Origin: an uncultured Nitrospirales bacterium
GTDB lineage: Bacteria > Hydrogenedentota > Hydrogenedentia > Hydrogenedentales > CAILVY01
Length of the DNA: 64,000 nt
Assembly (NCBI GenBank): GCA_964474205.1
Contig: CAYYRW010000006.1
Location: 143,772 to 207,771, forward strand
Direction of reading: 5' to 3'
Both the position numbers and the translations under genes were made by a program. This document shows positions 1,343 to 56,137 of this stretch, piece by piece. A model generated the notes under the pieces. The model was not told the DNA's origin, ran no database searches, and saw only the letters and a list, made by a program, of their open reading frames with translations. How positions within the stretch are numbered: position 1 is the stretch's first letter; the number at the start of each line of letters is the position of its first letter.

Positions 1343-3380
1343 CGTACTGCCCCACTTCTATAGGTAGTTCGGCGGGAGGCTGATTTTCCGCCGGTGGCTT
1401 CATTTCGAGCGTGCAAAATTGCGGCCCCACGCCGTTCACCAGCCCCTCACCGATAATGACGGGTTTGTCGCCCAACACAGCGCCGGTGGTTGGGTCTTTT
1501 ACCGCTTCCGTCCGGTACACAAGGCATTTCAGGCTTTCGCGAAGCCCCTGGTTTTCTTTCAAATCACAGGTGACTTCCGGCGCGGCCCATTCCAGCACCT
1601 TGCCGCGCACACGGGGGAATTCTTGCGTCAACCGCACCCCCAGATCCTCGATCAACCGGCCCAGTTCCTTGTACGGTCCCGCCACATCCACACGCGGCGC
1701 GACCCGCACTCCCGTTTCCGTGCTGCTGCCCTCGAGCACGATCTCGATGGAGTCCTGGTCCCTCCGGATGCGCGCGGCCAGCATCACATCGGCGGGCACC
1801 AGCTTGCCCAATTGCAGCTTTCCTTTTTCCGAGGACAGCGCCGAGGAAAGCTCCTGTTCCGCAAGGATGCTTTTGAGCAAATCGCGGTCGACCAAGGTAA
1901 AACGTTTTTGCACCGTGCGAGCACCCGCCAATTCGCTCAAAATATATTCCGTATCCTGCATCGTTCCCGGATTTTTCGTTTCCGTAACATTTCCCAGAAA
2001 CGCCAATGCAAGCTTCCCTTTTGTCATCTCAATTTCCGTCGGGGAACGCAACACGGTTTTGCGCGCCTCGCCCGAGCGGCCGTTGGAATCCGAGGCCGAG
2101 GCCTGTATCGGGTTCTCTCCCTCTTCCAGCCGCACCCGGCGGCTCAGGTGGACATTCGCACGGCCGGGCACAATGGGAATCGCTTCACCGTTCAAACTGA
2201 CCTTATCAACGACGGTGGTGGTGCGCACGTCCATCGCCACGACAATCTCTTCCATGAAATATTGCTGGCCATCCTGGAGATTGTTCAACGCCACCGTGAT
2301 GGCCCCGCTGGAATCCGGCGTCACCCCCAACACCATCGACAGGCCGGATGCGATCATATTGAGCATTCGCGAACCAAAGGGAAACGGGGAAGAAACATTG
2401 CGCTGTGCCGATGCAGGACCTGGAATCTCGCCCCGGGTGATGTTGCCCAATCCGTCTTCACACTCATACATAAGCGGAGTGGTCATTTCCTGCGCTGGGA
2501 TGTCCAGTACAAACGTGGTTACCCCGTTCTCCCGGGTCAAAGCGGCTTCTTTTCCACCCACCCGGAACGCCTTCACACTGGTCCGGTCAACCGCCGCGCC
2601 CCGCAGCACGCCGGGCAAGGTCAACGGCTCATCAAAACTCAACGCGGGGCCTTCCACATCCAGTATCACCGGCACATGGGCCGCAGAAGATTTTCCAAGA
2701 AGGTCCGTGGCGGTGATCTCGATATCATTCTGCCCCGGTTTCAGCGCCACCTGTTGCCGGAACGAAATACTGGGGCCGGAAACTTTAATATCCACCGGTG
2801 CGCCGTTCACGGCAATGCCCGCCACAAAGGTGTCATCCCGGACGGTCCCGGCCACTTCCAGTTCCATGGCCGAAACCGTGTTGGCGGTTTCCTGGATTTC
2901 GATTACCGGCGGCGTGGCATCGGCCCCGCTCTTTTCCAGCAGCCGTTTGCGCGATTCGTTGAGATAATAGGCAGCGCGCGCCGAAAATCGCTGTTTCAAG
3001 CTGAGTTCGAGTTGGGCGGCACCCGCGGAATACTGGTTTTGATGATAGAGCGCGACGCCCAATTCCCGATGCGGGAAATATTCCGGCACGAAATGCAGAC
3101 CATAGGTGCGCGGCCACAGTTGATCCTTGTTCCGGCCTTTGAGCGCGCTTTCCAGATCGCGCTGCGCCTCCGGGTAAAATCCGCCTTCCAGATAGGAACG
3201 TCCGCGTTCATAATAATTCCACCACCGCCCCCGGAAGCGTCCTTCCGTCACGCCATAACGCACCCCGTCCCGCACAAACTTTTTTTCGTCCTGCCGGGAG
3301 AACACGGCGCATCCCGGCACGAAGGTGGTGAGCAGAACCGCCGCAAGACAGCAGAACACGGTATGGCGGTGAAAATTCAT
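1329..3380 (-). CDS. Lipoprotein-like secreted protein with N-terminal TPR-like region, Ig-like middle and C-terminal CsgG/LpoB-like domain
   Basis: 683-aa ORF. The signal peptide has a lipobox-like end (LLTTFVPGC). The C-terminal region reads FLGNVTETKNP...TLVDRDLLKSILAEQELSSALSSEKGKLQLGKLVPADVMLAARIRR, the CsgG/LpoB-type periplasmic module. The ATG overlaps the kinase stop (ATGA at 3377-3380). Confidence 0.75.
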   Translation of the reverse strand: MNFHRHTVFCCLAAVLLTTFVPGCAVFSRQDEKKFVRDGVRYGVTEGRFRGRWWNYYERGRSYLEGGFYPEAQRDLESALKGRNKDQLWPRTYGLHFVPEYFPHRELGVALYHQNQYSAGAAQLELSLKQRFSARAAYYLNESRKRLLEKSGADATPPVIEIQETANTVSAMELEVAGTVRDDTFVAGIAVNGAPVDIKVSGPSISFRQQVALKPGQNDIEITATDLLGKSSAAHVPVILDVEGPALSFDEPLTLPGVLRGAAVDRTSVKAFRVGGKEAALTRENGVTTFVLDIPAQEMTTPLMYECEDGLGNITRGEIPGPASAQRNVSSPFPFGSRMLNMIASGLSMVLGVTPDSSGAITVALNNLQDGQQYFMEEIVVAMDVRTTTVVDKVSLNGEAIPIVPGRANVHLSRRVRLEEGENPIQASASDSNGRSGEARKTVLRSPTEIEMTKGKLALAFLGNVTETKNPGTMQDTEYILSELAGARTVQKRFTLVDRDLLKSILAEQELSSALSSEKGKLQLGKLVPADVMLAARIRRDQDSIEIVLEGSSTETGVRVAPRVDVAGPYKELGRLIEDLGVRLTQEFPRVRGKVLEWAAPEVTCDLKENQGLRESLKCLVYRTEAVKDPTTGAVLGDKPVIIGEGLVNGVGPQFCTLEMKPPAENQPPAELPIEVGQYVVTK

Positions 3381-5830
3381 TGCGATGAACCGTCCTGCGA
3401 TAGCGGTTCCTGCACATACCAGCCGGTATCCGGGGTATTGCCCAGTTTCGCGGCATCAACGCCCGAAAGAATTACTTTCGAGGTGGAGCCGCCTGGCATA
3501 TCCACGGTTGCCAGGGCCTCTTTCATGGGCGGTGCTTCGGGATCGGGCAACACTTCCAGTTTCATTCCGGGAGTGACGCCCTGCTTTGTGCCAATGTTAA
3601 TCTCCGGGCCGTTCGCCCCCTGGTACACACGGCCCCGCACGGGATAGGCCTGTGCGACGGCGCGCCAGATGGCCCTGGCGGCATCGTCCACCACCTGCTG
3701 TGCATTTTCATGCCCGCCCAAATCCAAGGCGGGCACGGCCACCGGCACGGACGTTTCCACATCATCAATCTTAAAGGTGAGTTTCTCCAGGCCATCCACC
3801 TTGGTTATGCGGCACTGGATCACCAGGCGCGCCCCAACGATTTGGCCCAAACGCAACCGGTTGGCGCCTGAACTCAACATGCCGGAAAGCTCTTGCTCGC
3901 CGAGAATCTCATTGATCAATTCACGGTCCACCAGTTTCATGGAGGTTTCCGCGTCCAAGCGTTCGCCCAGCCACTGAGGCAGCAGGTCCAGCAGGCCCGA
4001 TTCCATCGCAAAACGGCTTTGTTTTGCTTCCACGGGCAACACGAAAAAGCTTAGGGCACGGCTGGTCCACGGATCACTTGCATTCTCCGGCGCCGACTGG
4101 CTATCCATCATCTGACGGATATGTTGCACCGATTGCCGCACTTGTTCACGCCGGGAATCATCCAAGCGGCGCGCAAGTTCCGCCGAGTAAGCCTGCGCCA
4201 CGGCGGAACCATCCGGCACCCCGCTGGCCGCAAGCTGCTCGAAGATGGTTTTGGCGTCGCTGAATTTTCCAAGGCGGTAATACGCCTGGCCGAGGGTTTG
4301 CAGTGCCTCGCCATATTGCCATTTGAATTGAAAGGCTTCTTCCTTGAGCCCCTTCAGCAGACTGGCCGTTTGTTCATATTCATTTTTCATGGCGGCGATT
4401 TGGGCGCGCAGTGAATTTAGGTACTGTGAACCGGCATTGCCCATGCCCGAAAGGACGGATTCCGCGGCTACACCGTCCTTTTCAAACGCCACGGCGGCTT
4501 CGCCTTCCGCGCGTAACAGGGGGTCCGCAATGGGCTTCAACACGGCGGCGGCCTCTTCCAGTTTTCCCTCACGCATCAAGGCCATGCCCAAGCCATACGC
4601 CACGGAAGCATCCTTGGGATTCTCCTTAAGCAATTGTTGATATTCACGCTCCGCACACTCGAGATTCTTCTTTTCCAAACAATCCCGTGCCTTCGCCAGG
4701 GCTGCTCCGGAACGTTTTCCGGGTTCCTCGACAATGCTCGCCGCACGAATAACCAACAGGATGGCGGCGGTGATCAGTAACGCGGTCCCCACCAACACCA
4801 GATACCGCCACCGTTTCTTTGCGGGCGGCGCGGGCGGCGCATTGATCGTAATGGGCGGCACCATTCCCTGACGCTCAATCGCCTGCAACGCCAAGCGCAA
4901 CCGGCGCGCAAACTCTCCCATGGTTTGGAACCGGTTTTCAGGTTTGTGGGCAATGGCCTTCTCCACAATATCGAGAAGGCCCTCCGGGAGATCAGGGCGG
5001 CGTTCCCGCAAGGGAACATGGTCACCCACCCGGATTTTCCGCAGGATTTCCCGGACCCCCGGCGCTTCAAAGGGCCGCCGTCCGCAAATCAGTTCATAGA
5101 GCGTTACCCCGAGCGAAAAAATGTCCGAACGCGCATCCAAGGGATCGCCATCGGCCTGTTCGGGAGACATATAGGGCGGAGAACCGCTGATATCGCCTTC
5201 AATGGTGAAATCAGAGCCGGAAGGCAGGCGTGCAAGCCCAAAGTCGGTGATTTTTGCCTTTTTCGTGTTGGGTTCCAACAGGATATTTGCCGGCTTGATG
5301 TCGCGGTGCATGATACCCTGCTGGTGGGCTTCGTACAAGGCTTCCGCGCATTCCGCGGTGATGCGCAAGGCATCCAACAGTGTCAACCCCTCCGGATTTT
5401 CCTCCAGAAGTTGATCCGCGTTGCCCTCGACGTATTCCAGGACGAAATAACACCGGCCTTTATGTTCGCCCCATTGAAAAATGTCCACGATGGAAGGATG
5501 CTTGCTGAGCGCCGCGATGGCTTTCGCTTCGCGCTCGAACATGGCACGGGCCTTCTCGGACATTTCATGGTTCATGAACTTAATGGCCACCTGCCGTTCC
5601 AGGGCTTCATCCCGCGCCTTGTAAACGGTTCCAAAGCCTCCCGCGCCCAGCTTGTGAAGGATGCGATAGTTGCCAATGCATTCGTTCAGCAACGCGTCGG
5701 ATACTTCGCTGATGGAAATGGAAGGCTCCGAGGCGGCCGCGCTCAATCCTTCCGGCGAATCGGAACTTTCCATATGTGAGGTCGGATCATCCGGCCTTTT
5801 CTTTGAAGAATCATTTTCCCTTTGTGACAT
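3377..5830 (-). CDS. Hanks-type Ser/Thr protein kinase: cytoplasmic kinase domain, one TM helix, periplasmic TPR region and C-terminal CsgG/LpoB-like domain
   Basis: Kinase motifs are present: LGAGGFGTVYKA (G-loop), AIK, HRDIKPANILL, DFGLARL, SPEQ. A TM helix (WRYLVLVGTALLITAAILLVI) is followed by TPR-like repeats. The C-terminal segment KLVDRELINEILGEQELSGMLSSGANRLRLGQIVGARLVIQCRI is paralogous to the C-terminus of the downstream gene. Confidence 0.9.
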   Translation of the reverse strand: MSQRENDSSKKRPDDPTSHMESSDSPEGLSAAASEPSISISEVSDALLNECIGNYRILHKLGAGGFGTVYKARDEALERQVAIKFMNHEMSEKARAMFEREAKAIAALSKHPSIVDIFQWGEHKGRCYFVLEYVEGNADQLLEENPEGLTLLDALRITAECAEALYEAHQQGIMHRDIKPANILLEPNTKKAKITDFGLARLPSGSDFTIEGDISGSPPYMSPEQADGDPLDARSDIFSLGVTLYELICGRRPFEAPGVREILRKIRVGDHVPLRERRPDLPEGLLDIVEKAIAHKPENRFQTMGEFARRLRLALQAIERQGMVPPITINAPPAPPAKKRWRYLVLVGTALLITAAILLVIRAASIVEEPGKRSGAALAKARDCLEKKNLECAEREYQQLLKENPKDASVAYGLGMALMREGKLEEAAAVLKPIADPLLRAEGEAAVAFEKDGVAAESVLSGMGNAGSQYLNSLRAQIAAMKNEYEQTASLLKGLKEEAFQFKWQYGEALQTLGQAYYRLGKFSDAKTIFEQLAASGVPDGSAVAQAYSAELARRLDDSRREQVRQSVQHIRQMMDSQSAPENASDPWTSRALSFFVLPVEAKQSRFAMESGLLDLLPQWLGERLDAETSMKLVDRELINEILGEQELSGMLSSGANRLRLGQIVGARLVIQCRITKVDGLEKLTFKIDDVETSVPVAVPALDLGGHENAQQVVDDAARAIWRAVAQAYPVRGRVYQGANGPEINIGTKQGVTPGMKLEVLPDPEAPPMKEALATVDMPGGSTSKVILSGVDAAKLGNTPDTGWYVQEPLSQDGSSQ

Positions 5831-5901: not shown

Positions 5902-8900
5902 CTACCGTTTACCCGTATTTTTCCAGCCCAGTAAAATCATTAGACTCAAACAACCGATGAAAAGGTCACCCAGGAGCCGCTGCCAATCCTTCAAGGTGAA
6001 ATCAGTCTCATTGCATTGGCAACTGAAGGGCGGTTGAACTTCACCCTCGGTTTCGCCCTCCAGTGCGCCCTCCTCCGCGCCTTCGATAATGCCTTCGTCA
6101 TCACCTTCCATGATGCCTTCGAGAACATCCCCCTCGGATGAGCCTTCGGTTTGGCCTTCAACGAGCATGCCCTCTTCTTCGCCTTCGCCTTCAGCTTGGC
6201 CTTCAACGAGCATGCCCTCTTCTTCGCCTTCAGATTGGCCTTCAACGAGCATGCCTTCCGCTTCACCTTCGGTTTGGCCTTCAACGAGCATGCCCTCTTC
6301 TTCGCCTTCGCCCTCGGTCACCCCCTCGCCCTCTTCCGCTGAACCTTCGGAGGGCATGCCTTCCACCGAACCACCCGTAACCGTTACGGAGCCGTTGACG
6401 GCCTGTACGGGAATTTGCGTGCCGTTGAGCTCAGGCGCGATCAACTGGAGGGGAGAGGATTTTCCGGCGGCATCGGCGGCGATTTGGAAGTGAAGCACGG
6501 CCAGGGTGCCCGAACCGCTCAGGGCATAGGCGGAAGATGCGGATATCAGCACTTCACCGGCGAAAGTGTTTAGGTTGGGGGCTCCCCACGAGGAGGTGAG
6601 GCTGCCGTTCTCAAAACTCGCATAGGTGAGCACGGTTTCATCAAAGGTAATGTCCAGGAAATACGCGCGCACATCGGTGGCGTCATCGAGTGCCACGGGT
6701 ACCTCGATTTGTGTTCCAGGCTCCCCGGACAGCGCGGGCAGGGTGAGTTGGCGTTCGCCTATATTCAGCGCATTCTTTGCACTACTTTTGCAGTCCGTAT
6801 CCGGGCCGAACTCGTTGCCATCGCAGTCCGCGGGCAATTGCGCCGTAATGCCCACCTTCCATTGGAGGATGTCCGAGCCGTCCAATTCATTCAGGGCGCC
6901 ATCACCGTTCACATCGGCAGCCTCGGGATAGGCCGGCCGGACCACGCCGGGATACGCCGTGAACTCGGTAATGAGACGCACGCGCCACTGGCCAATGGCC
7001 GAGGCATCCAGCGTGCCCACGCGCGCATCGCCGGTCAACTCACCCCAGCGGTAGCTGCCGCCCGAAGAAGGTTCGAGGGCAATGTCGCGTTCCGTGGCGG
7101 CTCCCGCGCTGACCAGCACATATTCGCTGGCGTCCTGATAGCCGTCCTTGGAGGCCATCAGCATGTACGTGCCTTCCGCCACATTTGGCAGGAAGTATTC
7201 GCCTCTCGCGGTGGTACTCATTGAAGTCCCATTCGGGCTAATCGTCACTTCCGCGCCTTCCACCGGCGTACCGGTGGCGAGGTCCTTGATCACGCCGGTA
7301 ATATAGCCGGGGAGGGCGGGATTATGATTGTCCACGATGAAGTGCCGCACCATGGAACCCGTGGGGCTGGCGCCATACACATCCACGGGGATCACACGCC
7401 AATAATAGGTTTGACCGTCTTGCAGGCCGCTCATGGATACCGCCGTTACCGAGATCCCTTCTTTGAACCTTAATCCGGTGCTAAAGGAGTCATCCTCGGC
7501 AATCTCCAGGCGGTAGGTCAACGGATCGCCATCCGGGTCGGTTACGGAAGTCCACGCGAAGAAACTTGTGCTGTACACGCTCATCCCGTCACCGGGATAA
7601 TTCAGCGTGGTGAGGGTGGGCGGACGATTGGTGGCGGATTGCCGGTAGATGGTCGTCATCAGGAAGGAACTGGTTTCCTTGGTAACGCCGTCCTGCACAT
7701 AGTAGAACACATTGTAAGTGCCCGGCGCGTCAAAAGTGGTTCCGAAGGTTTCCCATCGGAAATACCCGGTGTCCAAATTGGAGATGGCGGTCTCATAGTC
7801 GAACGAGGGCAGATCAATGTATTTCTGCGAATCTTCATTCGCCGGGTCCACCGTGGTGGAACCCGCATATTCGGGCGTTTTCACCTCGATCCACGCGGTA
7901 TGGCCCGTCGCCGGGATATCCGTGGCTTTTGCGAACAACTGCCCCACGGGATCCGCCGGACCCAGCATCAGGGTTTGTGTGGAGGTGATCCACCCGACGG
8001 AACCGGTGGCGTTCACGCCATAACCCAGCACCATTTCATGGGCCAGCGAACCATCATTGCCGGAGGCAAACGCCAGGTGTCTCGCTTCGCTTCCTGTGCC
8101 ATCCCCGTTGTCATCCAATAGCGGATGTTGTTTGAACAGGGCGGAAGCTCCATTGCTTTTGGTGGCGGTGTAGGTCAGGGTCTTGTCCGTGGCGCGTTCG
8201 AAGGATTCTTTTAAGGTTTTGCCTTCCCGCGCATTGCGGAAAAATTCGGTGGTGAAGGCTTCGCCGTCCCGCACCAAGCCCAGTTTTTCCAGCACGCCGC
8301 GATGGGACACTTCATTTTTCGAGGTGCTGGTAATCACCACGCGATTCGCCCCAGAGACCGCCTCGACGAAGCTTCCCGAATAACACGAACCCATAACAAG
8401 CGCCACCTTCTGGTTGCGCGACGCCGTGTTCAGGCTGGCTTGCAGGAAGTTCAAATACCCCGCCAATTCCGACGGCGTGATGTACCGGGTCTCATTGTAA
8501 CTGCCGGAATATACATAGAATTTACTCGGGCCGCCATGATCGATCAGCACGATATACAAGGGGGCGGGGGAGGTGTTCATTTGCGTTACGGCCCAATTCT
8601 GTATGGCCCCCGTCACATCCGCCTGGGACGGCGTGCGATCATCCACAAAAATATCCGCCGCCGGTTGCGCCGGGCCTTCGCGGAGGTAGTAAATGTCTTC
8701 GTGGGCAAAACCCCGGTCGCGGAATGCACGATAGACATAATCGCCGGTTTTGCGATGTTCGTCCATTCCTTCGCCGGTGGCGTCCAATTTTCCCACCACA
8801 ACGATGGCGTAGCCGGCCTTGTCTTTGACCGTCAAGCGCACGGATTCGGGCTTGTCGTAACCTTCCGACGTGGTGGCCAGCAGATTTTGACTGCCCTCAA

Positions 8901-11900
8901 ATTCCACCAGGAACTGCCACGTGCCCGGACTGCTAAAAGTGATGCCTGCCGCTGTGAATGCTGAGGCGGGAAACACAACCTTGCCGCCCGCGCCGGTGGT
9001 TCCCGCCACGGGCCCCGCGGAAGAGGCATCGGGTTTCTTCATCCACAAATTCACCGTTTGCCCTGTCACCAAAGTCTGCAATTGTGCAGGAAGCGGCCCG
9101 CTCAATACCGCCTCCGCTTGCAGGTCGGAAAACCCCATCGGGACCGAGGAGGCATTAAGGCTCAGGGTAAGTGTGGGCTGGGCCTTCTTCACGGCAAAGG
9201 GTGCCCAATTGCTTATCGCGTTTTGGTAATACACATCGCCCGGCCAGGACGCCTGAATCAGCCAGGGGGAGCGTCCCTCGGAGGCTTCCGTGGGATAAAA
9301 CAGGCGTGAATATGCGGTTCCGCCGATGGCTACTGCTTCCGGGAAATCGGTGGCATGTACCCCGGAGGGCGAGTTCGTGGTAAAGCTGACAATGGTTCCA
9401 ACGGGGCTTTTTCCCACAATACTGCCCGAAACCGTCAAGGTCTGCCCCAAGGTGATTTCCGAGGCGCTCAGGATACAGGAGATCGAAGAGGGTTCAAGGG
9501 TAATTTCTCCGTCCTGAATAATAGTGCATTCCGGCGAGGTGGCGGGAGTGCCATCATCCGCCCCATCGTTCGGAGTCACTACGCAATACCACAAATCACC
9601 CACGGTAGTGTCGTCCGCGAACACCCGGCTGCGTGTCGTCTGGTTAAACGCGCTGGTGAATGTGCTGTACGACCCGCCCGAAGGCTTGCGCCACCATGCA
9701 AATGCATACGTAACGGGGTCTCCATCCGCATCCTGGCTGGCGGTCTGAATGGAGCATTCCAGGGTGGTGCTGTCATTCAATTGTGCGGGAAATGTGAGTA
9801 CGGGTGCGCCCGGCGGGGTGTTTACAATCGTCACCGAATCCTCGCCCGGATCGGAATAGTCGCCGCCGTAGTATCCTCGCACGATGCAGGTCCAGGTATC
9901 CCCACGGCTCGTTTCAGAGGCATTTAATGTGTCCACAAGACCAGATTGCGGGCCATGTACAATCGGGGTTCCACCATTGCTCCAGGAGAATTCATACTGC
10001 ACGGAATACGGCGCGCTGGGGGTTGTCACTGTACATACAAGATCATCCGAACTTGTCGGAAAATCCGGAGTGATTTCTACCACAGGCGCTGTCATTGGCC
10101 CCGCTTCGGATGAACGGGTAATTCTGAAACCTATGAAGTAACGATGATCGCCAGGTGTTGTGTGGTTTCGAAAAGCGGAACGGCACGAGTCCCAACTACT
10201 AGGCCAACTTCCACCACGCATGGTACGATCTGATCCGAATCCAGGCCCAATGGGATCGATTTGACTGCCTGTTCCATAACTATCATACCAGTCATGACAC
10301 CATTCATTGACGCCTCCACTCATATCGTAACAACCCGCTGGACTGAAACTGTCAACAGTCGTAATACTGCCGTTTGGACTAATATTCACTCCATTAAACC
10401 ACCCCGCCGGGGAAGTATATGGTTCGGATACCATGCCCATGGGATTAACGTGATTTGGATTGGCATCGTAATAGTTACAGCGGGCCTTACCCGTGAGTGT
10501 GTCGCTTTGGAATCCATAAATCCAATGTGTCGATCCCGAGGTATTCCAACCGGCGGCATATTCCCATTCGGCTTCTGTTGGTAATCGATAACCTCCAGAT
10601 GCAACTGAAAGCGCCCATGTGGTTAGGGTGTAGCAAGGGGTTAACCCCTCCATTTCACTCAACCAGTTACAGAAACATACTGCTCCAAACCAAGAAACCC
10701 AGACCACAGGATGATTCACCATCGAGTATCCATCGCGTGTTTTTGGCGCGAATGTGCCATTCACGAATTGTACATCGCTTGTGCTTTCCGACACCGCTGC
10801 AACCAGTTGCAGACTCCCTTCATCGACATATACATCGCCGCTGGTATAGGCCGCGCCCGTTGAATTCTTGAGATACCCCCGCGCATTGGCCCAATTAAGG
10901 ACTGTGGCGAACTGGCCGTTGGTGATCTCGAACTTGCCAATTTTATAGGGACTCAGCGTCACCTCATGACGCGGCAATTCGTCCGCTCCACCATAGGCGC
11001 CATCGTCCCCATCATCCCGCCGGCCCATCGTGAAGGTTCCCCCAGCCACATCCACCATCGGTATGTGAATAGGCGACCGCGCTACGCGGAAACCCGTGTA
11101 ATTATCGCGGTAGTTCTGTGGCAACCCGCCGGGGCGGTAGGCTGTACGGCTATTGCTTTTAGCGTTTCCCCAAGACCCGCCGCGCATTTCCCTTCCTGTA
11201 CCCGAGACCGGCCCTGTGGGGTCCGTCATGGACCCGCCGCTGTAATACGTGTCAAGGTGTTTATCGTGACACCATTCCCACACATTCCCTGACATGTCAT
11301 AACATCCTGCTGGCGAAGGTGAATCCACCGTTGCGATACTTCCATTGGGACTGACATGAACACCATCAAACCAACCAGCGGGGGAGGTGTAGGGGAGTTC
11401 GGTGAGACCAAGAGGATTTACACCCGAAGGACTCCCATCCCCATAACTACAATGGGCTTTGCCTGTTAGGGTATCCGTCATCATCCCGTAGATCCAGTGC
11501 TTACCGGCATCGGAATCCCATGCGGCCGCCCGTTCCCATTCCGCCTCTGTTGGCAACCGGTATCCATCAGGGTAGGGAGTAATGATCTCCCATGTTTTTA
11601 GATCATAACAGGGTGTCAGCCCCTGGGCCTCGCTTAACCAGTTGCAAAACGCCACGGCGCCATGCCAGGTCACCGTAGTGACAGGATGGTGCTCCATGGA
11701 GTAGGTATCGCGGGTTTTCCATCCGAATGCGCCGTTTGTATAGGTGATCGGGCAATAAGCATGAGTTAAAAATAGGATTTGCTGCCGGTCACCTTCATCC
11801 ACATACACATCACCACTGGAATAGTAGCTGCCATCCGAGTTTTTCAAGTACCCGTGCCCTTTGGCCCAGTTCAGCACCGCCGCAAACTGCCCGTTCGTCA

Positions 11901-14295
11901 CTTCAAACTTACCAATGTTATAGGCGCTCAAGGTCACCTCATGCCGTGGCAACTCTGTGGTCTGGCCATAGGTCCCATCATCCCCATCATCCCGCCGCCC
12001 CATCGTGAAGGTGCCGGAGGAGACGGGAACATTAGGCATCAAGTCCAATGTAGTGACGAAAATGTCATAATCTGTACCCGTAATTCCACCAAGGTTTTCA
12101 TTGGCGGAGTAAATCGCAACCCAGTGCCCCCGGGCATCTGAAGCGATGGAAGCGGTACGATACGGTCCCGTTACCGCATCCTGATTGAGAGATTGGGCCA
12201 AGTACCATGTCGTCCCGCCGTCTTCAGAACGCGACCAATGCAGATCGGCATTCTCATGATTCCATACAACGACATAGTTGCCGGCCTCATCATAATCGAT
12301 GGACAAAGGATAATAGTCATCGGTATCTATTGAATCTCTCTGATTAAGCTGTTTAGGAGTACTCCATGTGATCCCATTGTCCAGGGATTGAGCCATAGCC
12401 ACATCAATGTTCGCATTCCAACGTTGGCTACTCGACCATAGGACGAACCAACGGCCATTACCATCGGTCACAATATTTTGCTGGCTGCCAAATCTATCAT
12501 AGGCTATATCCGTTGCGCCATCGGTATTGACATGCCCCGGTGCGGACCACGTTATTCCATTGTCAACTGACCGCGATGACAGGACATCGTAGTCACTTCC
12601 GGCTATTCCCTCTGGACTGTTAGGGGTTGTCCAAACAACAACCCAAGTCCCTTTTCTATCCGTTGTGATACTGGGAGGATCATCCTCCTCGGTATCCGTT
12701 GATGCCCAAGGACAGAGCGCGGCTGGGCTGGACCATGTACTGCCATTGTCATCGGATCGTGAATACGCGATATCCGTATCCGTCCCCCAGCGGCGGCAAT
12801 GAAACACAACAACCCAACGCCCATTGCCATTTGTGGAGATTTGTGCACTTCCATCATACATGCCACCTGTGGTAATCGCTGATTTGGTACTCCATGTCGC
12901 CCCATTGTCAGTCGATCGTGAAAAAATCACGCCATTATTCCCGTCAGGGACTGCTATCCACCCGCTCCAAACAACAATCCATGTTCCTTTTCCATCTGTG
13001 GCAATCTTCGGATCTCTATGATCCCGATAGTCTGTAGGAGTTCCTCCCGCATTGATAAGAACGGGCGTTGACCATGTATTTCCGCCATCGCTCGAACGAG
13101 CCGCTAAAATGTTATGTTGTGTGTAGCCATTACTGTCGTAGAAATCATCAGCACAAGCCCAAACAGCCACCCAGTTGCCGTTGTGGTCGCTTTCAATATC
13201 GACCTCACGGTCCATAATATCTGAAGCGTCCAAAGCCGCGCGCGCATTTAGTGATCTCTGATGCGACCATTCAAGGCTTGACGACGCAAACTCATATGCG
13301 CCCATATCGGGTCCGCCGCCCCACGTGCGGAGCGTGCCTTCGATGTCTGTGAGAGGTGCGCCGGTGGCGGTGCCAGTATCGATACACGGCGACCCGGCGC
13401 ACAAGCGGAGATCTGTCGTGCTCGCAAAACGCGGATTCTCATTTTTGTTGCCCGTGCCGGTGTATCCGCCTTGCACATCGGAGTAGGTGATTGCCGTACT
13501 GCCGCCGGTATCGACGATCTCTGGAGTAAGACTGTTCCAAAGAATACAGTTTGTCGCCGTAGTGTTAGCGGCATTGTGGTTATGTATTGCGCTGCCGTCA
13601 ACGCTACTGTTGCCGTAAAAAGAGCAGTTCATGATTTGAGGCCAGGCGGCAGGCTGATTGTTAAACAACCCGCCGCCTGAATTTGCAGTGTTATTCAGAA
13701 AGACACAGTTCACCAATGCCGGAGAGCAGGCATAGTTATACATGCCACCGCCCACCGCCGCGGCATTACCTTTGAAGCAGCAATTAGTCACGATGCAGGA
13801 GGCAAGATTGTTATATATTCCTCCGCCTCTGTCATTTTCTCCGCCACCGTTCGCGTTCCCGCCGGTGACGGTGAATCCGTCAATACCCGAATCCTCCGCT
13901 CCGAGGACAACGTGGTAGGCGGCGGAACCCGCACGGGCAGTACTGCCGTCGATAATGGTGGTATGGGCACTCAAATCCCGCTCCGAGCGTTGCGTTTCGT
14001 TACCGGCAAATCCGCCATAGAGCGAAACGGTTGATTTAAGTTCAAGTGCGCCGCTCGCATGCGGACGCGTTTCGCTGTAGGTTCCTTCCGCGACCCAGAC
14101 CTCGCCGCCCCCGGCCGCGGAGGCGGCATTGACCGCCGGTTGGATCGTTTTGAAGGCGGTTGCCCACGATGTGCCGTCTTCCGTGCCGGTGTTGTCCTTG
14201 TCCACGTACCAAGTGGCGGCATTGGCATTCACACCGAGAAAAGCCGCCAACAGCAGAATAGCACCCGTGGCTAAATTACGTGCAAGCGTTAACAT
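5902..14295 (-). CDS. Giant secreted mosaic protein with nine modules: beta-helix, BNR propeller, two FGE-sulfatase domains, Ig/FN3, clan-CD peptidase, dockerin, cohesin, acidic repeats and a C-terminal TM anchor
   Basis: The uninterrupted frame runs 5902..14364 (2820 codons). The likely start is ATG at 14295 (MLTLARNLATGAILLLAAFLGVNANA signal peptide, AAGGAT Shine-Dalgarno 7 nt upstream). The six-frame track's 14364 start adds 23 non-signal residues. Modules, in track aa numbering: beta-helix ~50-360 (GGNANGGGENDRGGGIYNN-type turns); BNR/Asp-box propeller ~385-770 (seven SxDxGxTW boxes, e.g. SRSTDNGATWS, SRSDDNGSTWS, SRSVDNGITWS); FGE-sulfatase 1 at 778-1098 and FGE-sulfatase 2 at 1104-1418 (RLPTEAEWE, GNVWEWCHD, RGGSW); clan-CD peptidase ~1850-2080 (LIDHGG...MGSCYSG); carboxypeptidase-regulatory-like domain ~2355-2430; dockerin ~2440-2505 (DVNGDGALNELDGSDILQW); cohesin-like ~2535-2665; acidic EGMLVEGQ repeats 2667-2777; TM anchor LFIGCLSLMILLGWKNTGKR. 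Confidence 0.85.
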   Translation of the reverse strand: MLTLARNLATGAILLLAAFLGVNANAATWYVDKDNTGTEDGTSWATAFKTIQPAVNAASAAGGGEVWVAEGTYSETRPHASGALELKSTVSLYGGFAGNETQRSERDLSAHTTIIDGSTARAGSAAYHVVLGAEDSGIDGFTVTGGNANGGGENDRGGGIYNNLASCIVTNCCFKGNAAAVGGGMYNYACSPALVNCVFLNNTANSGGGLFNNQPAAWPQIMNCSFYGNSSVDGSAIHNHNAANTTATNCILWNSLTPEIVDTGGSTAITYSDVQGGYTGTGNKNENPRFASTTDLRLCAGSPCIDTGTATGAPLTDIEGTLRTWGGGPDMGAYEFASSSLEWSHQRSLNARAALDASDIMDREVDIESDHNGNWVAVWACADDFYDSNGYTQHNILAARSSDGGNTWSTPVLINAGGTPTDYRDHRDPKIATDGKGTWIVVWSGWIAVPDGNNGVIFSRSTDNGATWSTKSAITTGGMYDGSAQISTNGNGRWVVVFHCRRWGTDTDIAYSRSDDNGSTWSSPAALCPWASTDTEEDDPPSITTDRKGTWVVVWTTPNSPEGIAGSDYDVLSSRSVDNGITWSAPGHVNTDGATDIAYDRFGSQQNIVTDGNGRWFVLWSSSQRWNANIDVAMAQSLDNGITWSTPKQLNQRDSIDTDDYYPLSIDYDEAGNYVVVWNHENADLHWSRSEDGGTTWYLAQSLNQDAVTGPYRTASIASDARGHWVAIYSANENLGGITGTDYDIFVTTLDLMPNVPVSSGTFTMGRRDDGDDGTYGQTTELPRHEVTLSAYNIGKFEVTNGQFAAVLNWAKGHGYLKNSDGSYYSSGDVYVDEGDRQQILFLTHAYCPITYTNGAFGWKTRDTYSMEHHPVTTVTWHGAVAFCNWLSEAQGLTPCYDLKTWEIITPYPDGYRLPTEAEWERAAAWDSDAGKHWIYGMMTDTLTGKAHCSYGDGSPSGVNPLGLTELPYTSPAGWFDGVHVSPNGSIATVDSPSPAGCYDMSGNVWEWCHDKHLDTYYSGGSMTDPTGPVSGTGREMRGGSWGNAKSNSRTAYRPGGLPQNYRDNYTGFRVARSPIHIPMVDVAGGTFTMGRRDDGDDGAYGGADELPRHEVTLSPYKIGKFEITNGQFATVLNWANARGYLKNSTGAAYTSGDVYVDEGSLQLVAAVSESTSDVQFVNGTFAPKTRDGYSMVNHPVVWVSWFGAVCFCNWLSEMEGLTPCYTLTTWALSVASGGYRLPTEAEWEYAAGWNTSGSTHWIYGFQSDTLTGKARCNYYDANPNHVNPMGMVSEPYTSPAGWFNGVNISPNGSITTVDSFSPAGCYDMSGGVNEWCHDWYDSYGTGSQIDPIGPGFGSDRTMRGGSWPSSWDSCRSAFRNHTTPGDHRYFIGFRITRSSEAGPMTAPVVEITPDFPTSSDDLVCTVTTPSAPYSVQYEFSWSNGGTPIVHGPQSGLVDTLNASETSRGDTWTCIVRGYYGGDYSDPGEDSVTIVNTPPGAPVLTFPAQLNDSTTLECSIQTASQDADGDPVTYAFAWWRKPSGGSYSTFTSAFNQTTRSRVFADDTTVGDLWYCVVTPNDGADDGTPATSPECTIIQDGEITLEPSSISCILSASEITLGQTLTVSGSIVGKSPVGTIVSFTTNSPSGVHATDFPEAVAIGGTAYSRLFYPTEASEGRSPWLIQASWPGDVYYQNAISNWAPFAVKKAQPTLTLSLNASSVPMGFSDLQAEAVLSGPLPAQLQTLVTGQTVNLWMKKPDASSAGPVAGTTGAGGKVVFPASAFTAAGITFSSPGTWQFLVEFEGSQNLLATTSEGYDKPESVRLTVKDKAGYAIVVVGKLDATGEGMDEHRKTGDYVYRAFRDRGFAHEDIYYLREGPAQPAADIFVDDRTPSQADVTGAIQNWAVTQMNTSPAPLYIVLIDHGGPSKFYVYSGSYNETRYITPSELAGYLNFLQASLNTASRNQKVALVMGSCYSGSFVEAVSGANRVVITSTSKNEVSHRGVLEKLGLVRDGEAFTTEFFRNAREGKTLKESFERATDKTLTYTATKSNGASALFKQHPLLDDNGDGTGSEARHLAFASGNDGSLAHEMVLGYGVNATGSVGWITSTQTLMLGPADPVGQLFAKATDIPATGHTAWIEVKTPEYAGSTTVDPANEDSQKYIDLPSFDYETAISNLDTGYFRWETFGTTFDAPGTYNVFYYVQDGVTKETSSFLMTTIYRQSATNRPPTLTTLNYPGDGMSVYSTSFFAWTSVTDPDGDPLTYRLEIAEDDSFSTGLRFKEGISVTAVSMSGLQDGQTYYWRVIPVDVYGASPTGSMVRHFIVDNHNPALPGYITGVIKDLATGTPVEGAEVTISPNGTSMSTTARGEYFLPNVAEGTYMLMASKDGYQDASEYVLVSAGAATERDIALEPSSGGSYRWGELTGDARVGTLDASAIGQWRVRLITEFTAYPGVVRPAYPEAADVNGDGALNELDGSDILQWKVGITAQLPADCDGNEFGPDTDCKSSAKNALNIGERQLTLPALSGEPGTQIEVPVALDDATDVRAYFLDITFDETVLTYASFENGSLTSSWGAPNLNTFAGEVLISASSAYALSGSGTLAVLHFQIAADAAGKSSPLQLIAPELNGTQIPVQAVNGSVTVTGGSVEGMPSEGSAEEGEGVTEGEGEEEGMLVEGQTEGEAEGMLVEGQSEGEEEGMLVEGQAEGEGEEEGMLVEGQTEGSSEGDVLEGIMEGDDEGIIEGAEEGALEGETEGEVQPPFSCQCNETDFTLKDWQRLLGDLFIGCLSLMILLGWKNTGKR
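6033..6366 (-). repeat. In-frame imperfect tandem DNA repeats (~42-48 nt units) inside the giant CDS, encoding an acidic (E/G-rich) EGMLVEGQxEGExEE tail
   Basis: The unit ggccttcaacgagcatgccctcttcttcgccttc recurs four or more times on the plus strand (6130-6330). Translated on the minus strand it gives GMLVEGQTEGEAEGMLVEGQSEGEEEGMLVEGQAEGEGEEEGMLVEGQTEG. Confidence 0.7.
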
Positions 14296-14356
14296 ACCCT
14301 TATCCTTTAATCGTTGTCGTTGGTTTTGGGCTGCATCCCATAACCAAAGACTACTT

Positions 14357-15346
14357 TTATTCATTGCATACCGTCCTATCGTCTTCCCCCGCCCTCCGAG
14401 CTATGGAGGACAAGTTGCGGGAATGACGGAAATTTCGCAAACTCATGCAAATGAGCAAGACAGCAAGAATGATCCACACGGGCGGTCCCAGCGGCATGGG
14501 ATGTTCCCTGACAATTCGCACCAGCATGGATTCATAGACGACGGGCAACGCGCCGTCATTCAGTTCAGCACTGAAAATTTCGATGTAGGTGGTTTCGTCG
14601 AGAGGCGCGTCCTCGCGCACACGAAATCGCAAATAGATCACGGTGGCCGAGCCGGAAAATGGCTGGGTGCTATATGCGCCGACGGTGATGCGTCCATTGA
14701 TGGCGGCATTGACCGTGGGCGCGCCCCAGCCCGCAGGCAAGGCGCCGGGGGTGGTTCCGAGGAAATCCAGGAGGTTGGGCGCGTAGGAAAGGGAGAACAC
14801 CAATCCGAGCACGCCCCCGGCATCACGTAATTCTATTGGCAGGGTGAATTCATCGCCGGGCAGGAGGTCCAGGGATACCGGCATCCCCAACACCGCAATG
14901 TCCGCCACGGTCACCGTGCCGTTCTGGGCTGTGGCGACGATAGCCCCGTCGTTGAGTTCCACCTTTCGGAAAAATACCGTGGAAACGGCGCCCAACAGTG
15001 CGGTGGATTTTACCCGGAATTGAATCTGTACAAGGCTGCCCGCGCCCGCGATGGGAACGGTACTGTAACTTGCCACGCTGCATCGTCCGGCACTGGAATT
15101 GAGGATCGGGGCGGGCCAACTGGCCGTGAGCAGGCCGTTCTGGGCGTTTATCACCTCAAAATCAGTGGAATACCCCAGTTCAAAGTAATACCCGAGCACC
15201 CCGGATACGGCGGTAACGGTGATGGGCAGGGTAAACGTCTCTCCCGGCGCCGCCACGATGGAATCCGGTACACTCACACTGACGGTTGCTCCGGCCAATG
15301 AAGCAACCACCCACATGCCTAATGCCAACAACCCACTTGCCCGCAC
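14357..15346 (-). CDS. Membrane-anchored protein with two cohesin-like domains (scaffoldin/anchor-like)
   Basis: 329 aa with a signal peptide (MRASGLLALGMWVVASLAGA). Two repeats resemble the cohesin module of the giant protein (VSVPDSIVAAPGETFTLPITVTAVSGVLGYYFELGYS... and MPVSLDLLPGDEFTLPIELRDAGGVLGLVFSLSY...). A C-terminal TM segment (PPVWIILAVLLICMSL) is followed by basic residues. It sits 61 nt upstream of the giant gene. Confidence 0.65.
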   Translation of the reverse strand: MRASGLLALGMWVVASLAGATVSVSVPDSIVAAPGETFTLPITVTAVSGVLGYYFELGYSTDFEVINAQNGLLTASWPAPILNSSAGRCSVASYSTVPIAGAGSLVQIQFRVKSTALLGAVSTVFFRKVELNDGAIVATAQNGTVTVADIAVLGMPVSLDLLPGDEFTLPIELRDAGGVLGLVFSLSYAPNLLDFLGTTPGALPAGWGAPTVNAAINGRITVGAYSTQPFSGSATVIYLRFRVREDAPLDETTYIEIFSAELNDGALPVVYESMLVRIVREHPMPLGPPVWIILAVLLICMSLRNFRHSRNLSSIARRAGEDDRTVCNE

Positions 15347-15717: not shown

Positions 15718-15873
15718 TCAGGCCTCTTTATTGGCCTTCGAATTCGCGATGGCAGTCGAAATAGAGGTGATGATGGGCCCGATAGCTTCGAGCAGGGCGG
15801 TAATTATGCTGAGGGTGTCGCCCCCTGTATCAAACCACGATGCGGCCTTTGAGACGGGTTTGATGTGTTTCAT
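15718..15873 (-). CDS. Small (51 aa) amphipathic/hydrophobic peptide, hypothetical
   Basis: MKHIKPVSKAASWFDTGGDTLSIITALLEAIGPIITSISTAIANSKANKEA. A strong Shine-Dalgarno (AAGGAGAACATTCG) lies before the ATG (reverse complement of 15871-15873). It is below the six-frame track's 60-aa cutoff and sits in an otherwise empty 880-bp gap. Confidence 0.4.
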   Translation of the reverse strand: MKHIKPVSKAASWFDTGGDTLSIITALLEAIGPIITSISTAIANSKANKEA

Positions 15874-16054
15874 CGAATGTTCTCCTTGGTTTCCGATGTC
15901 TTCAGGTCGTTATCCATGCCAACCATGTATACCACACCATACCCCACTCGTTACCGTGGAAACAAGTATTTTTCCGCGCCCCACGCCTTCGCGCCCTCAA
16001 TTATCCGCCATTCGAGTATGTCCTGAATGACACGTGCGTTAACAACGAATCCAA

Positions 16055-20056: not shown

Positions 20057-20338
20057 GAATCTCTCCTCACACGTACCGTGCGTTATGCACATCCTGAATG
20101 TTTACAATACCTAAAAAGCGAAAACATCCGCAAGAGAACGGCCCCGCCAAAGAATTATGGAAAATTCAACGCGAGGGGTATTGGGTGCGCCCATTCTTGC
20201 GGATGTGAATGCGGATGGATTCAGCGAACTGATGGTGCCTGGTTCCGCCGGATTTCTGCATGTTTTTGGAACTTTTCCACAGTAAGTGGTATACTATTCC
20301 TATCGCCGCTCACAGGCAGTACGGAGTTGAGTGTCATC

Positions 20339-21238
20339 ATGGAAGTGCCAAGAACCCCTCTTAAAATCATCGTTCTGGGTCTATGTCTTTTTGCATTGAG
20401 CGCCTGCAATCAAACCCCGCGCATTCTCATCGTGGGGGACAGTTGGGCGTTTCTGATGGGGTATCAGAACTCACTCGGGAAGGCCCTGACGAAGCATGGG
20501 TACGTGCTCTACCGCGACCAATTCACTATGGTGAAGCCCACCGCCTTTCCTGGCACCACCACCGAGGATTTTGTTAAAAACCGCCTGAATCTGATGGAAA
20601 ACACGCTTGCCGCGCTGCGGGAAACGCCCACGCTGGACATCGTGCACCTGAGCTTGGGCGGCAATGATGCTATTAACAAATGGATGCCATGGTTTGGCCT
20701 GCGGCAGGAAGAGGCGTTGTGGGATGAAATCTGTGACAATCTCCGCGTCATTATCGAGCAGATTCTCGCGGTCCGGCCCACTATCCGGGTCGCCGTGTGC
20801 GGGTATGATTACATGGACGCCACCGTACAGGGACGTCCCGCCAACGAGCTGAACCAACTGTGTGTCCGATTCGAAAAACGGGTGTTGGAAATGCTCAGTA
20901 CCATGGACCGGTGTACTTTTATCAACAATTTCGGCCTGATGCAATGCACCTATGGCTATCCCGGACATTTCGACGATATGGGCGAAATATCGGACCAGCC
21001 CTCCATTTATGAACCGGGTGAGTTGCCGTGTCCCGGCAATGCGGACTCGGGTTATGAACCGTTCGCGGGAGGCGATATTGCGTATCCCAGCCCTTCCAGT
21101 TCTCTGGCAACATGGCTGGACACCAACGGCTATATTCACCTGAACGCCGGGGGCTATGATGTGCTGGGCATGCATTGCGTTGATGTGTGCTATGCGGATT
21201 GGCTGGATCATCCTCTTGTGGCGGATGAGTCGCGCTGA
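20339..21238 (+). CDS. Lipoprotein SGNH/GDSL hydrolase
   Basis: The true start is ATG 20339 (MEVPRTPLKIIVLGLCLFALSACNQ: signal peptide plus lipobox LSAC). A GDSL block (ILIVGDSWA) comes immediately after. The track's extension back to 20030 overlaps aconitase and is rejected. A tatact -10-like hexamer lies at ~20291. Confidence 0.75.
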   Translation: MEVPRTPLKIIVLGLCLFALSACNQTPRILIVGDSWAFLMGYQNSLGKALTKHGYVLYRDQFTMVKPTAFPGTTTEDFVKNRLNLMENTLAALRETPTLDIVHLSLGGNDAINKWMPWFGLRQEEALWDEICDNLRVIIEQILAVRPTIRVAVCGYDYMDATVQGRPANELNQLCVRFEKRVLEMLSTMDRCTFINNFGLMQCTYGYPGHFDDMGEISDQPSIYEPGELPCPGNADSGYEPFAGGDIAYPSPSSSLATWLDTNGYIHLNAGGYDVLGMHCVDVCYADWLDHPLVADESR

Positions 21239-33424: not shown

Positions 33425-33550
33425 GGTTGTCCTTTCTCTTGACTGGGATAGTGTAAGAACTGCATGGCACATAAAGCAATGCCCGGTGTGAAACATCCCC
33501 ATTTTTGGATATGTTATACTTCGTTTGTTCCGGGAGGAGAACAGACAGTC

Positions 33551-37394: not shown

Positions 37395-37652
37395 GACAGC
37401 CTCCCATTCCTTCACAGGCGAACATGTTCCAGGCGGAAGTGCCGCCGAGTGCGCCCTGTTTTGCCTGCCCCGGAATCTCCTCGGTTCCCGGCGCATTCGA
37501 TCACTGCAATTTTCATATTTTGCGCAGTATCGGCGCAAGAACCGAAAACCACTGAAATATATTGCATTCCCGGAAAACTTATGGAAAAATACGGTTGAAC
37601 CGTGTAAAGAGCAAAAAATTGGCAGAAATATCAAACCTTGGGAGTGGTTGCC

Positions 37653-53314: not shown

Positions 53315-53318
53315 AGCC

Positions 53319-56136: not shown

Positions 56137-56137
56137 T

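Follow-up and report, generated by a model that had tools for sequence, protein, structure and literature searches.

The stretch analysed here (the window, 64,000 nt of contig CAYYRW010000006.1, positions 143,772 to 207,771) carries on its minus strand a gene for a small membrane protein with two cohesin modules, followed by a gene for a giant protein that combines a legumain-type C13 peptidase, a dockerin and a cohesin. We read this gene pair as a conserved Candidatus Hydrogenedentota operon that builds a membrane-tethered assembly held together by cohesin–dockerin contacts, an interpretation to which we assign a probability of about 0.5. The argument is carried by the identity of the modules, the linkage of the two genes across related lineages and natural fusions of the pair into one chain.

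The host is a diderm of the candidate phylum Hydrogenedentota. The window encodes a TolC-type OEP with HlyD and AcrB (26-31.8 kb), LptF/LptG (46-48.2 kb) and a FadL/PorV/BamG-like barrel, confirming the didermal host proposed in a preliminary description of this DNA. A relative of the small protein was placed in a Candidatus Hydrogenedentota metagenome-assembled genome (MAG; L006) by a genome scan that used a six-sequence alignment of the small protein, and the NCBI names of giant-protein homologues are mostly Hydrogenedentes.

Organization of the gene pair

The small protein and the giant comprise the following features.

14357..15346 (-): two-cohesin membrane protein (the ‘anchor’), 329 aa; Pfam Cohesin, 78 bits in two stretches
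15287-15346 (-): signal peptide of the small protein
14903-15283 (-): cohesin 1 of the small protein
14510-14899 (-): cohesin 2 of the small protein
14411-14503 (-): HPMPLG motif, transmembrane (TM) helix and basic residues of the small protein
5902..14364 (-): giant gene, an open reading frame (ORF) of 2820 aa; probable start at nt 14295 (Met24), giving 2797 aa
14215..14295 (-): Sec-type signal peptide MLTLARNLATGAILLLAAFLGVNANA, recognized by eye, with hydropathy peaking at aa 24-45
13279..14214 (-): right-handed beta-helix at the N-terminus, with a choice-of-anchor Q domain (NCBIfam choice_anch_Q) at its end; variable head
12055..13182 (-): BNR/Asp-box beta-propeller (Pfam BNR_2, 5.5e-13)
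10105..12021 (-): two tandem modules of the FGE-sulfatase (formylglycine-generating enzyme, FGE) fold, aa 782-1098 and aa 1099-1420 (Pfam, 3e-82)
8788..10104 (-): Ig-like spacer domains (weak Pfam Ig_VWDE match), kept in L005p and P0016-P0018
8065..8787 (-): domain of the legumain type (Peptidase C13, clan CD), scoring 27.8 bits in Pfam where the gathering score is 22.8
7309..8064 (-): beta-sandwich and FN3-like region, within the core conserved in 164 homologues (weak PhoD_N/FN3-type match)
7072..7302 (-): CarboxypepD_reg domain (Pfam, 8.9e-15)
6805..7056 (-): type-I-like dockerin with F-hand segments GELTGDARVGTLDASAIGQW and DVNGDGALNELDGSDILQW, then a loop PAD-x-(N/D)G-x-x-x-GP
6379..6750 (-): cohesin of the giant, of the same subfamily as the two of the small protein (Pfam Cohesin, 45.4 bits against 24.1)
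6037..6357 (-): Glu/Gly-rich acidic spacer with four EGMLVEGQ repeats (from composition)
5905..6036 (-): conserved tail PPFSCQCN...LK-x-(L/W)Q-x-LLGD-(L/F)-FIG-x-LS-(L/V)-M-(I/V)-LL-x-W, TM helix and basic residues

Both ORFs adjoin on one strand with the small one upstream, as first described. Translation of the giant probably starts at Met24 because a typical signal peptide (‘MLTLARN...ANA’) begins there; the gap from the stop of the small gene to this start is ~60 nt (61 nt in the Joint Genome Institute gene call of the near-identical contig L001), in agreement with the 61 nt originally given. Every motif quoted in the preliminary description was recovered, with LIDHGG at aa 1940, MGSCYSG at aa 1991, DVNGDGALNELDGSDILQW at aa 2484, four copies of EGMLVEGQ at aa 2690-2731 and KNTGKR as the C-terminus of the giant, after a hydrophobic stretch.

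The beta-helix proposed for the N-terminus is borne out by choice_anch_Q (NCBIfam, 42.6 bits against a cut-off of 25), a rhamnogalacturonidase match to the same region being weak, and the homologous heads in L002 and L005 match Beta_helix. The BNR propeller likewise holds, but with six strict Asp-boxes (S-x-D-x-G-x-T-W, by regular expression) at aa 424, 484, 537, 599, 660 and 713, spaced by 53-62 residues, instead of the seven boxes claimed. At the other end of the giant, the Glu/Gly spacer contributes most of a 120-residue stretch with 38 Glu and 26 Gly (aa 2671-2790, reaching slightly past the end of the spacer) and has counterparts in L004, P0015 and P0016. The tail consensus derives from an alignment of the window with L004, L006, P0015, P0016 and P0017.

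In the small protein the hydropathy peak lies at aa 283-305, where a C-terminal hydrophobic helix precedes the basic residues. Its homologues form 13 clusters in a search of 5.8 billion proteins, all metagenomic, and all 13 share a signal peptide, two cohesins, an [L/M]-P-x-G-like motif with an invariant Pro just ahead of the TM helix, the helix itself and basic residues.

Identity of the cohesins and the dockerin

By sequence profile the cohesins and the dockerin are genuine, and for the dockerin and cohesin of the giant the predicted fold agrees. Against a gathering score of 24.1, Pfam Cohesin (PF00963) scores 45.4 bits for the giant and 78 bits, with two domains, for the small protein, so that the internal cohesin and the cohesin pair of the preliminary description both stand. 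The cohesin of the giant matches the solved cohesin 6kgc at 2e-5 by sequence search and is predicted to form a nine-stranded jelly-roll superposable on solved cohesins, with the Archaeoglobus fulgidus cohesin among the top structural matches. Together with the cohesins of the small protein it forms one subfamily (E down to 4e-26).

The dockerin had been called canonical and type-I-like. Its family profile and predicted dockerin fold uphold the assignment, but the Pfam threshold is missed, with Dockerin_1 (PF00404) at 14.7 bits for the whole giant and 22.0 bits for the isolated segment against a gathering score of 22.9, and one calcium loop departs from the canonical pattern. PF00404 is nevertheless the best Pfam family for all eight dockerin-region orthologues, whose alignment displays GD-x-S/T-x-D-x-x-V-G-T-x-D-A/G-S-x-I/L-L-Q-W twice and then a conserved PAD-T-NGDG-x-GP-D/E loop. 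The tandem duplication of a ~22-residue calcium loop plus helix is visible in both segments of these eight sequences, and the family profile matches 4dh2_B (6.6e-8) and the ScaB dockerin 4uyp_B (4.5e-6) across both segments.

When both loops are compared with the calcium-ligand pattern D1-N/D3-D/N5-x-x-x-D/N9-x-x-D12, segment 2 is canonical, with D-x-N-x-D-G-x-L-N-x-x-D (DVNGDGALNELD), and segment 1 is partly degenerate, reading E-L-T-G-D-A-R-V-G-T-L-D in the window and D-V-S-A-D-x-x-V-G-T-x-D in relatives. A two-domain model of the dockerin and the cohesin of the giant, which are joined by a linker of ~20-30 residues, reached a predicted template modelling score (pTM) of 0.82. None of the three outcomes that the preliminary description had listed as speaking against its proposal was encountered here or in the comparison of loci below: modules failing as cohesins and dockerins or folding as unrelated beta-sandwiches, loops without calcium-binding geometry, or an absent or unlinked neighbour.

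Linkage, fusion and taxonomic spread

In all six informative lineages (window/L001, L002, L003, L004, L005 and L006/L008), a giant gene comes next after the two-cohesin gene on the same strand, with spacing that ranges from overlap up to 636 nt. The co-occurrence that the preliminary description proposed to check is thus, for these two genes, seen in every related lineage that could be examined, and in some the two genes are fused. Five such fused forms are P0014, P0030, L009, L010 and L011, where a single chain runs from the dockerin through two successive cohesins, [M/L]PLG and a TM helix to an Arg-rich tail; these tails resemble those of the small proteins and not those of the split giants, and a separate anchor gene was not found in the fetched flanks of the fused variants. 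This Rosetta-stone fusion of two genes is the strongest computational argument that their products work together.

The tail of the giant is constant among complete members and consists of Ig, C13, FN3, CarboxypepD_reg, dockerin, cohesin, Glu/Gly spacer, and TM helix with basic residues; dockerin, cohesin and TM tail are present in every giant with a complete C-terminus. The head differs by lineage, as follows.

Window: beta-helix, six-bladed BNR propeller and two FGE-fold modules
L002: beta-helix and DUF5123
L003: DUF7948 and SBBP propeller
L004 and L006: weak G8-like match at the N-terminus, the rest without assignment
L010: NHL/SGL propeller

A search with the conserved core (aa 1850-2700) returned 164 proteins sharing a C13-FN3-CarboxypepD_reg arrangement, usually annotated as ‘C13 family peptidase’ and found in Hydrogenedentes, Planctomycetes, Magnetococcales, Beggiatoa, Chloroflexota and Deltaproteobacteria. 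Distant members (P0044, P0075, P0077, P0028 and P0029) end in a canonical dockerin immediately after CarboxypepD_reg, and the position of the dockerin is therefore ancestral; a cohesin is added only in the closest, Hydrogenedentes-type members. A dockerin of this type occurs once per locus, and only in the giant, in the window and in 11 related loci. A loose F-hand regular expression run over all window ORFs recovered two loops only.

Catalytic and non-catalytic modules of the giant

The C13 region is a real legumain-family domain with an intact His-Cys dyad and a predicted peptidase, in keeping with the clan-CD, legumain-like assignment first made from its LIDHGG and MGSCYSG motifs. His1943 lies within the former and Cys1994 within the latter. 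A family profile built from 17 relatives matches legumain (4noj, 2.1e-6) and GPI transamidase (8e-4) with DHG and C-x-SGS in register, and a single-sequence Protein Data Bank (PDB) search with the C13 segment found no match; only the family profile reached legumain. Among 123 C13-family relatives, the His is conserved in 107 and the Cys in 102 (83-87%).

The two FGE-sulfatase modules were also correctly recognized as to fold, matching FGEs in the PDB at 1e-15 to 1e-17, but both lack the catalytic Cys pair. In module 2, alignment to the FGE 6s07 places a Ser at the first Cu-binding catalytic Cys; module 1 (RGGSWGNAKSNSRTAYR) has neither catalytic Cys, as judged by eye on the translation and not by FGE alignment. 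With this Cu(I)-binding pair missing, activity as formylglycine-generating enzymes was ruled out, and the modules are, for the same reason, probably binding or structural. The best PDB match of module 2 is TvpA (2y3c), a non-enzymatic surface protein of Treponema denticola, with FGEs and PorK next. The terms ‘nine-module enzyme’ and ‘multi-enzyme’ used in the preliminary description thus overstate the catalytic content, as an intact catalytic dyad was seen in C13 alone, and the giant is better described as one clear enzyme among binding and spacer modules.

A link to type IX secretion (T9SS) was considered, given that the FGE modules match GldK/PorK, that a neighbouring gene product matches PorV/BamG and that clan-CD peptidases act as T9SS sortases. 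It was rejected: the scores fall far under the equivalog cut-offs (126 vs 350, 46.8 vs 90 and 66 vs 250), the likeness is generic to the FGE or FadL fold and the T9SS C-terminal domain is absent.

Membrane tails and predicted location

A tripartite layout of motif, TM helix and basic cluster is shared by 13 anchors, five fused giants and eight split giants. The motif of the anchor is [L/M]-P-x-G, and that of the giant combines a Cys-containing motif with LLGD. The same layout of a short motif, a TM helix and a basic cluster characterizes LPXTG/sortase, PEP-CTERM/exosortase and MYXO-CTERM/myxosortase signals and is described for such C-terminal sorting signals (PMC11980579). Unlike those, neither tail is matched by a curated model, and processing is purely hypothetical: a comparison of NCBIfam with the C-terminal 132 aa of the giant and 67 aa of the anchor returned no family at E<=0.05 and no sorting-signal model, and sortase, exosortase, rhomboid and CPBP genes were not seen among window ORFs of at least 200 aa. 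The ‘cell-surface’ location given in the preliminary description was an assumption, for a Sec signal with a TM tail predicts the periplasmic side of the inner membrane unless the tail is cleaved.

A third protein and its C-terminal tag

The plus strand of the window encodes a further large protein, whose C-terminus had been described as divergent dockerin-like.

37638..43256 (+): third protein, with signal peptide, LRR, 13 Flg_new_2 repeats, two PASTA domains, Glu/Gly spacer and C-terminal tag
42960..43253 (+): the tag, a Cys-rich double loop-helix of two ‘...LSELLR-x-IQFFNSGGYH’ units

The tag (~95 aa) has the consensus H-x-ADQ-x-x-D-x-x-I-x-LSELLRVIQFFNS-x-G-x-HC...TEDGYAPG...PH-x-SDYNPQDW-x-I-x-LSELLR-x-IQFFNSGGYH-x-CP...TEDGFCPG. 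An exhaustive HMMER search of 1.84 billion representatives returned 2,639 clusters at E<=1e-3 and 2,057 at E<=1e-10. Of the 150 best matches, 133 have the tag within five residues of the C-terminus, and it retains 60-80% identity across otherwise unrelated proteins. Named sources are nearly all Hydrogenedentes/Hydrogenedens, with several copies per MAG, and include one Kiritimatiellae record. A good many of the copies in databases stop at a contig end and are labelled ‘partial’, a hint that assemblies tend to break in the conserved DNA encoding the tag.

The tag falls outside all Pfam and NCBIfam models, the window copy is without a Pfam match, and among 59 relatives EF-hand_6 matches 42 weakly and PF00404 seven weakly. 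Identity with the dockerin type of the giant was ruled out (hhalign probability 2.9%, and a narrow dockerin hidden Markov model misses the tag), and a single-sequence PDB search with the tag found no match. An AlphaFold2 (AF2) model of the tag has a predicted local distance difference test score (pLDDT) of 94.8, and solved dockerins rank first by two methods, with non-significant scores. In the window copy the first loop fits an EF-hand-type ligand pattern and the second looks degenerate by eye. The earlier wording therefore survives as to topology and not as to homology with the dockerin of the giant: ‘dockerin-like’ fairly describes the topology, and the tag is at most a candidate member of the dockerin family.

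We regard the tag as a candidate phylum-specific sorting or assembly signal; uncurated and very abundant, it deserves a family model of its own. In L006 (7067-9571; also L008), a Cthe_2159-family beta-helix protein carries the tag near its N-terminus (aa 63-158) and is encoded directly upstream of the two-cohesin gene, a single case that is suggestive.

Proposed assembly and alternative explanations

In the assembly that we favour, both proteins would be held in the membrane by their C-terminal helices, and the single dockerin of the giant would bind in a Ca2+-dependent manner, either to a cohesin of the small protein or to that of another giant beside it. Such contacts could cluster giant peptidase/adhesin molecules into an oligomeric array, with the acidic Glu/Gly spacer (~110 aa) keeping the working end off the membrane. 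There are three cohesins to one dockerin, so sockets would be left free for chaining or for other ligands. The C13 domain would provide the one constant enzymatic activity, directed at substrates or at the processing of the giant, and the variable head would decide what is bound.

Several points weigh against this proposal. It starts from domain identities, predicted folds, the catalytic dyad, linkage, fusions and the diderm context, and from these we infer cohesin–dockerin binding, its Ca2+ dependence, the stoichiometry, the localisation and the substrate. Only ~10 loci are known, all of them metagenomic, and the calcium loop of dockerin segment 1 is partly degenerate. The classical use of such a pair, to tether a free enzyme, does not apply where each partner brings a membrane anchor, and an anchoring role for the small protein is redundant because the giant is already anchored. 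The inner-membrane, periplasm-facing position predicted for a diderm protein with a signal peptide and a C-terminal TM helix is odd for a 2,800-aa adhesin/peptidase, and the tripartite tails, which resemble sorting signals, might be cleaved, changing the whole geometry.

The pTM of 0.82, reached despite the ~20-30-residue linker, may also mean that dockerin and adjacent cohesin pack against each other in cis, an arrangement that the fused variants, which hold dockerin and cohesins in one chain, fit equally well. The dockerin might then clasp its own chain, or daisy-chain only with other giants, so that the module would stabilise or polymerise a stalk in place of tethering giant to anchor, leaving the small protein as a spare paralogue with a role of its own. 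A precedent for an intramolecular dockerin clasp is ScaA of Ruminococcus flavefaciens (PMC3821032). We consider this explanation rather unlikely; against it, wherever the two genes are split, the anchor gene is strictly linked to that of the giant, which speaks for a part played by its product.

More doubtful still is an absence of any binding between these cohesin and dockerin folds, which would serve as spacer, carbohydrate-binding or calcium-binding stalk modules in a neighbourhood that reflects co-regulation only. Many phyla share the C13-FN3-CarboxypepD_reg core, to which the most diverse modules are appended, and cohesin- and dockerin-like modules outside cellulosomes are found widely, most of them without characterisation (Peer et al. 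2009, as cited in PMC6487960). However, no complete member of the subgroup has dockerin without cohesin, and the two are fused or split in concert; the putative contact helices (D-A/G-S-x-I/L-L-Q-W) are kept in both dockerin segments, and non-cellulosomal pairs that have been tested, such as that of A. fulgidus, do bind (PMC9705933).

The spare sockets left by three cohesins and one canonical dockerin raise a further possibility, that the cohesins receive tag proteins such as the LRR/Flg_new_2/PASTA protein and that anchor and giant scaffold much of the secreted proteome. A module of ~2,600 clusters, nearly always extreme C-terminal, 60-80% identical and present several times per MAG has the signature of a shared binding or sorting module; the confident AF2 model (pLDDT 94.8) puts solved dockerins first by two methods, and the tag-bearing Cthe_2159-family gene lies directly upstream of the anchor gene in L006 and L008. 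Against this, the tag shows no profile similarity to the dockerin of the giant, Pfam sees weak EF-hand loops only, and the second loop of the window copy appears degenerate by eye, the first still fitting an EF-hand-type pattern. The tag family (~2,600 clusters at 50% identity) is also far wider than that of the anchor (13 clusters at 90%, plus seven loci in two collection scans), and most tag-bearing organisms therefore appear to be without this anchor. We hold it improbable that the cohesins are sockets for tag proteins, and similarly improbable that the tag is a divergent dockerin plugging into anchored cohesins, which would turn the system into an analogue of the cellulosome in a Gram-negative, non-cellulolytic setting, with a giant C13 peptidase at its centre.

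Relation to known cohesin–dockerin systems

Cohesin–dockerin coupling is among the strongest non-covalent protein couplings known and is the basis of cellulosomes and of designer enzyme scaffolds. In a cellulosome, many dockerin-bearing enzymes plug into an anchored scaffoldin. The preliminary description saw cellulosome wiring in a diderm, of which the cohesin–dockerin genes and the diderm host stand; with one dockerin per locus, no glycoside hydrolase or carbohydrate-binding module (CBM), and both partners self-anchored, the wiring does not. The defining features of a cellulosome, namely many dockerin enzymes on a multi-cohesin scaffoldin, glycoside hydrolase cargo with CBMs, and wall attachment by S-layer homology (SLH) repeats or sortase, were not found here, and the Pfam/NCBIfam output for the giant and the small protein includes neither a glycoside hydrolase nor a CBM. 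The system thus belongs with the non-cellulosomal cohesin–dockerin systems, in which the coupling is reused outside cellulose degradation.

Cellulosomal type I pairs (Clostridium thermocellum OlpA/OlpC; the ScaB dockerin and ScaC cohesin of A. cellulolyticus; 4dh2, 3ul4, 4uyp and 5nrk) share the same two folds. As with anchoring scaffoldins, a small cell-bound cohesin protein is encoded beside a dockerin-bearing protein, and, as in ScaB, the dockerin has two F-hand segments and aligns with the ScaB dockerin over its full length. The present pair differs in its diderm host and in attachment by a C-terminal TM helix in place of SLH repeats or a sortase signal. Here there is also one such dockerin per locus, not dozens per genome region, and the dockerin bearer has in addition a cohesin and an anchor of its own, with the C13 peptidase as the constant and without glycoside hydrolase or CBM.

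Non-cellulosomal cohesin- and dockerin-containing proteins were reportedly surveyed by Peer et al. in 2009, and to our knowledge almost none of those catalogued has a defined partner or function. Single proteins with both a cohesin and a dockerin occur in A. fulgidus. Such modules are known across the three domains of life (Peer et al. 2009, as cited in PMC6487960). Binding has been shown for the A. fulgidus pair, which has also served for surface display (PMC9705933). The described examples (A. fulgidus, 2xdh; the Clostridium perfringens GH84/GH33 toxin complexes, 2vo8, 2w1n and 2o4e) likewise lie outside cellulose degradation but, unlike the present pair, come from an archaeon and Gram-positives, with proteins that are free or wall-associated.

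Omnitrophota ‘dockerin-type’ giants are predicted membrane-anchored proteins with dockerin/EF-hand repeats, peptidase-like domains and a C-terminal TM segment (bioRxiv 10.1101/2023.11.21.568195), and resemble the present giant as giant, predicted anchored extracellular proteins of a didermal candidate phylum. They differ in their size of at least 30,000 aa, their many dockerin/TSP3 repeats and their SecA-like domains (bioRxiv 10.1101/2023.11.21.568195); a Pfam-type cohesin partner gene and a C13-CarboxypepD_reg-dockerin-cohesin cassette are not reported for them. With respect to C13 family exoproteins and legumain (MEROPS C13, clan CD), the core of the giant (aa 1860-2431) is a family member whose dyad aligns with that of legumain. 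Most C13 exoproteins are without a cohesin and a few end in a plain dockerin; the Hydrogenedentota subgroup alone adds one or more cohesins, an acidic spacer and a TM tail.

Our literature search found no description of an operon of a two-cohesin TM anchor and a giant C13-dockerin-cohesin protein, of its split and fused forms or of the Hydrogenedentota tag, and nothing specific on Hydrogenedentes with cohesins, dockerins or sorting signals. We likewise know of no earlier account of a conserved ‘two-cohesin TM anchor plus giant’ operon, with or without the C13 core or the split/fused pair. The locus offers a clean test case, with one dockerin and three cohesins side by side, conservation within the phylum and natural split and fused versions, in a diderm host with a protease attached in place of glycoside hydrolases. 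Should the modules bind, they would show how a Gram-negative bacterium clusters giant envelope proteins and would supply a new orthogonal cohesin–dockerin pair for engineering.

Neighbouring genes and the rest of the window

Downstream of the giant, three further genes lie on the same strand.

3377..5830 (-): TPR-containing Ser/Thr protein kinase, the next gene downstream of the giant (Pfam Pkinase, 2.9e-49); also in L004, L005 and L006
1329..3380 (-): 683-aa protein with a Glucodextran_B domain and sub-threshold TPR and CsgG-like stretches; the same neighbour in L004 and L005
2..1327 (-): outer-membrane beta-barrel of the FadL/PorV/BamG superfamily, running off the window (NCBIfam BamG 2.4e-18 and PorV_fam 2.9e-12, both under their cut-offs)

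Kinase, 683-aa protein and barrel all lie beside the gene pair in L005, where the barrel counterpart matches Toluene_X; L004 has the kinase and the 683-aa protein, and L006 a kinase-sized ORF. A PDB sequence search with the 683-aa protein found no match. The three genes could form a dedicated regulation or export set.

Between kinase and two-cohesin gene, L005 (6706-9608) encodes an FHA-CHAT protein (caspase-like, clan CD), an extracytoplasmic function (ECF) sigma factor and a zf-HC2 anti-sigma factor. In L003 (2884-7238), four consecutive phage-integrase-family genes stand immediately upstream of the two-cohesin gene, and in that lineage a mobile element may carry or adjoin the module. A 51-codon ORF of the window (15722-15877, (-)), upstream of its two-cohesin gene and also called as a gene on L001, has no family assignment.

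Elsewhere in the window, three GDSL-type lipase/acylhydrolase genes occur within 18 kb (16230-17771, 20030-21238 and 32183-33793); together with an acyltransferase/alpha-beta-hydrolase fusion (21246-23456) they fit a lipid-degrading lifestyle. A complete type I-E CRISPR-Cas locus (48455-57118 and 57382-59900) encodes Cas3, Cse1, Cas7, Cas5, Cas6e and Cas1, and its array holds 41 copies of the 29-nt repeat GTTTTCCCCACGCGTGTGGGGATGAACCG with a 61-nt period. Guanine-cytosine content is 0.48-0.49 in the cas-gene region (48-56 kb), 0.55-0.57 in the array (57.4-59.9 kb) and ~0.56 elsewhere, and the lower value of the cas-gene region suggests horizontal acquisition. Just past the array, at 59910-60156, lie four tandem copies of a 62-nt repeat that are 82-100% identical.

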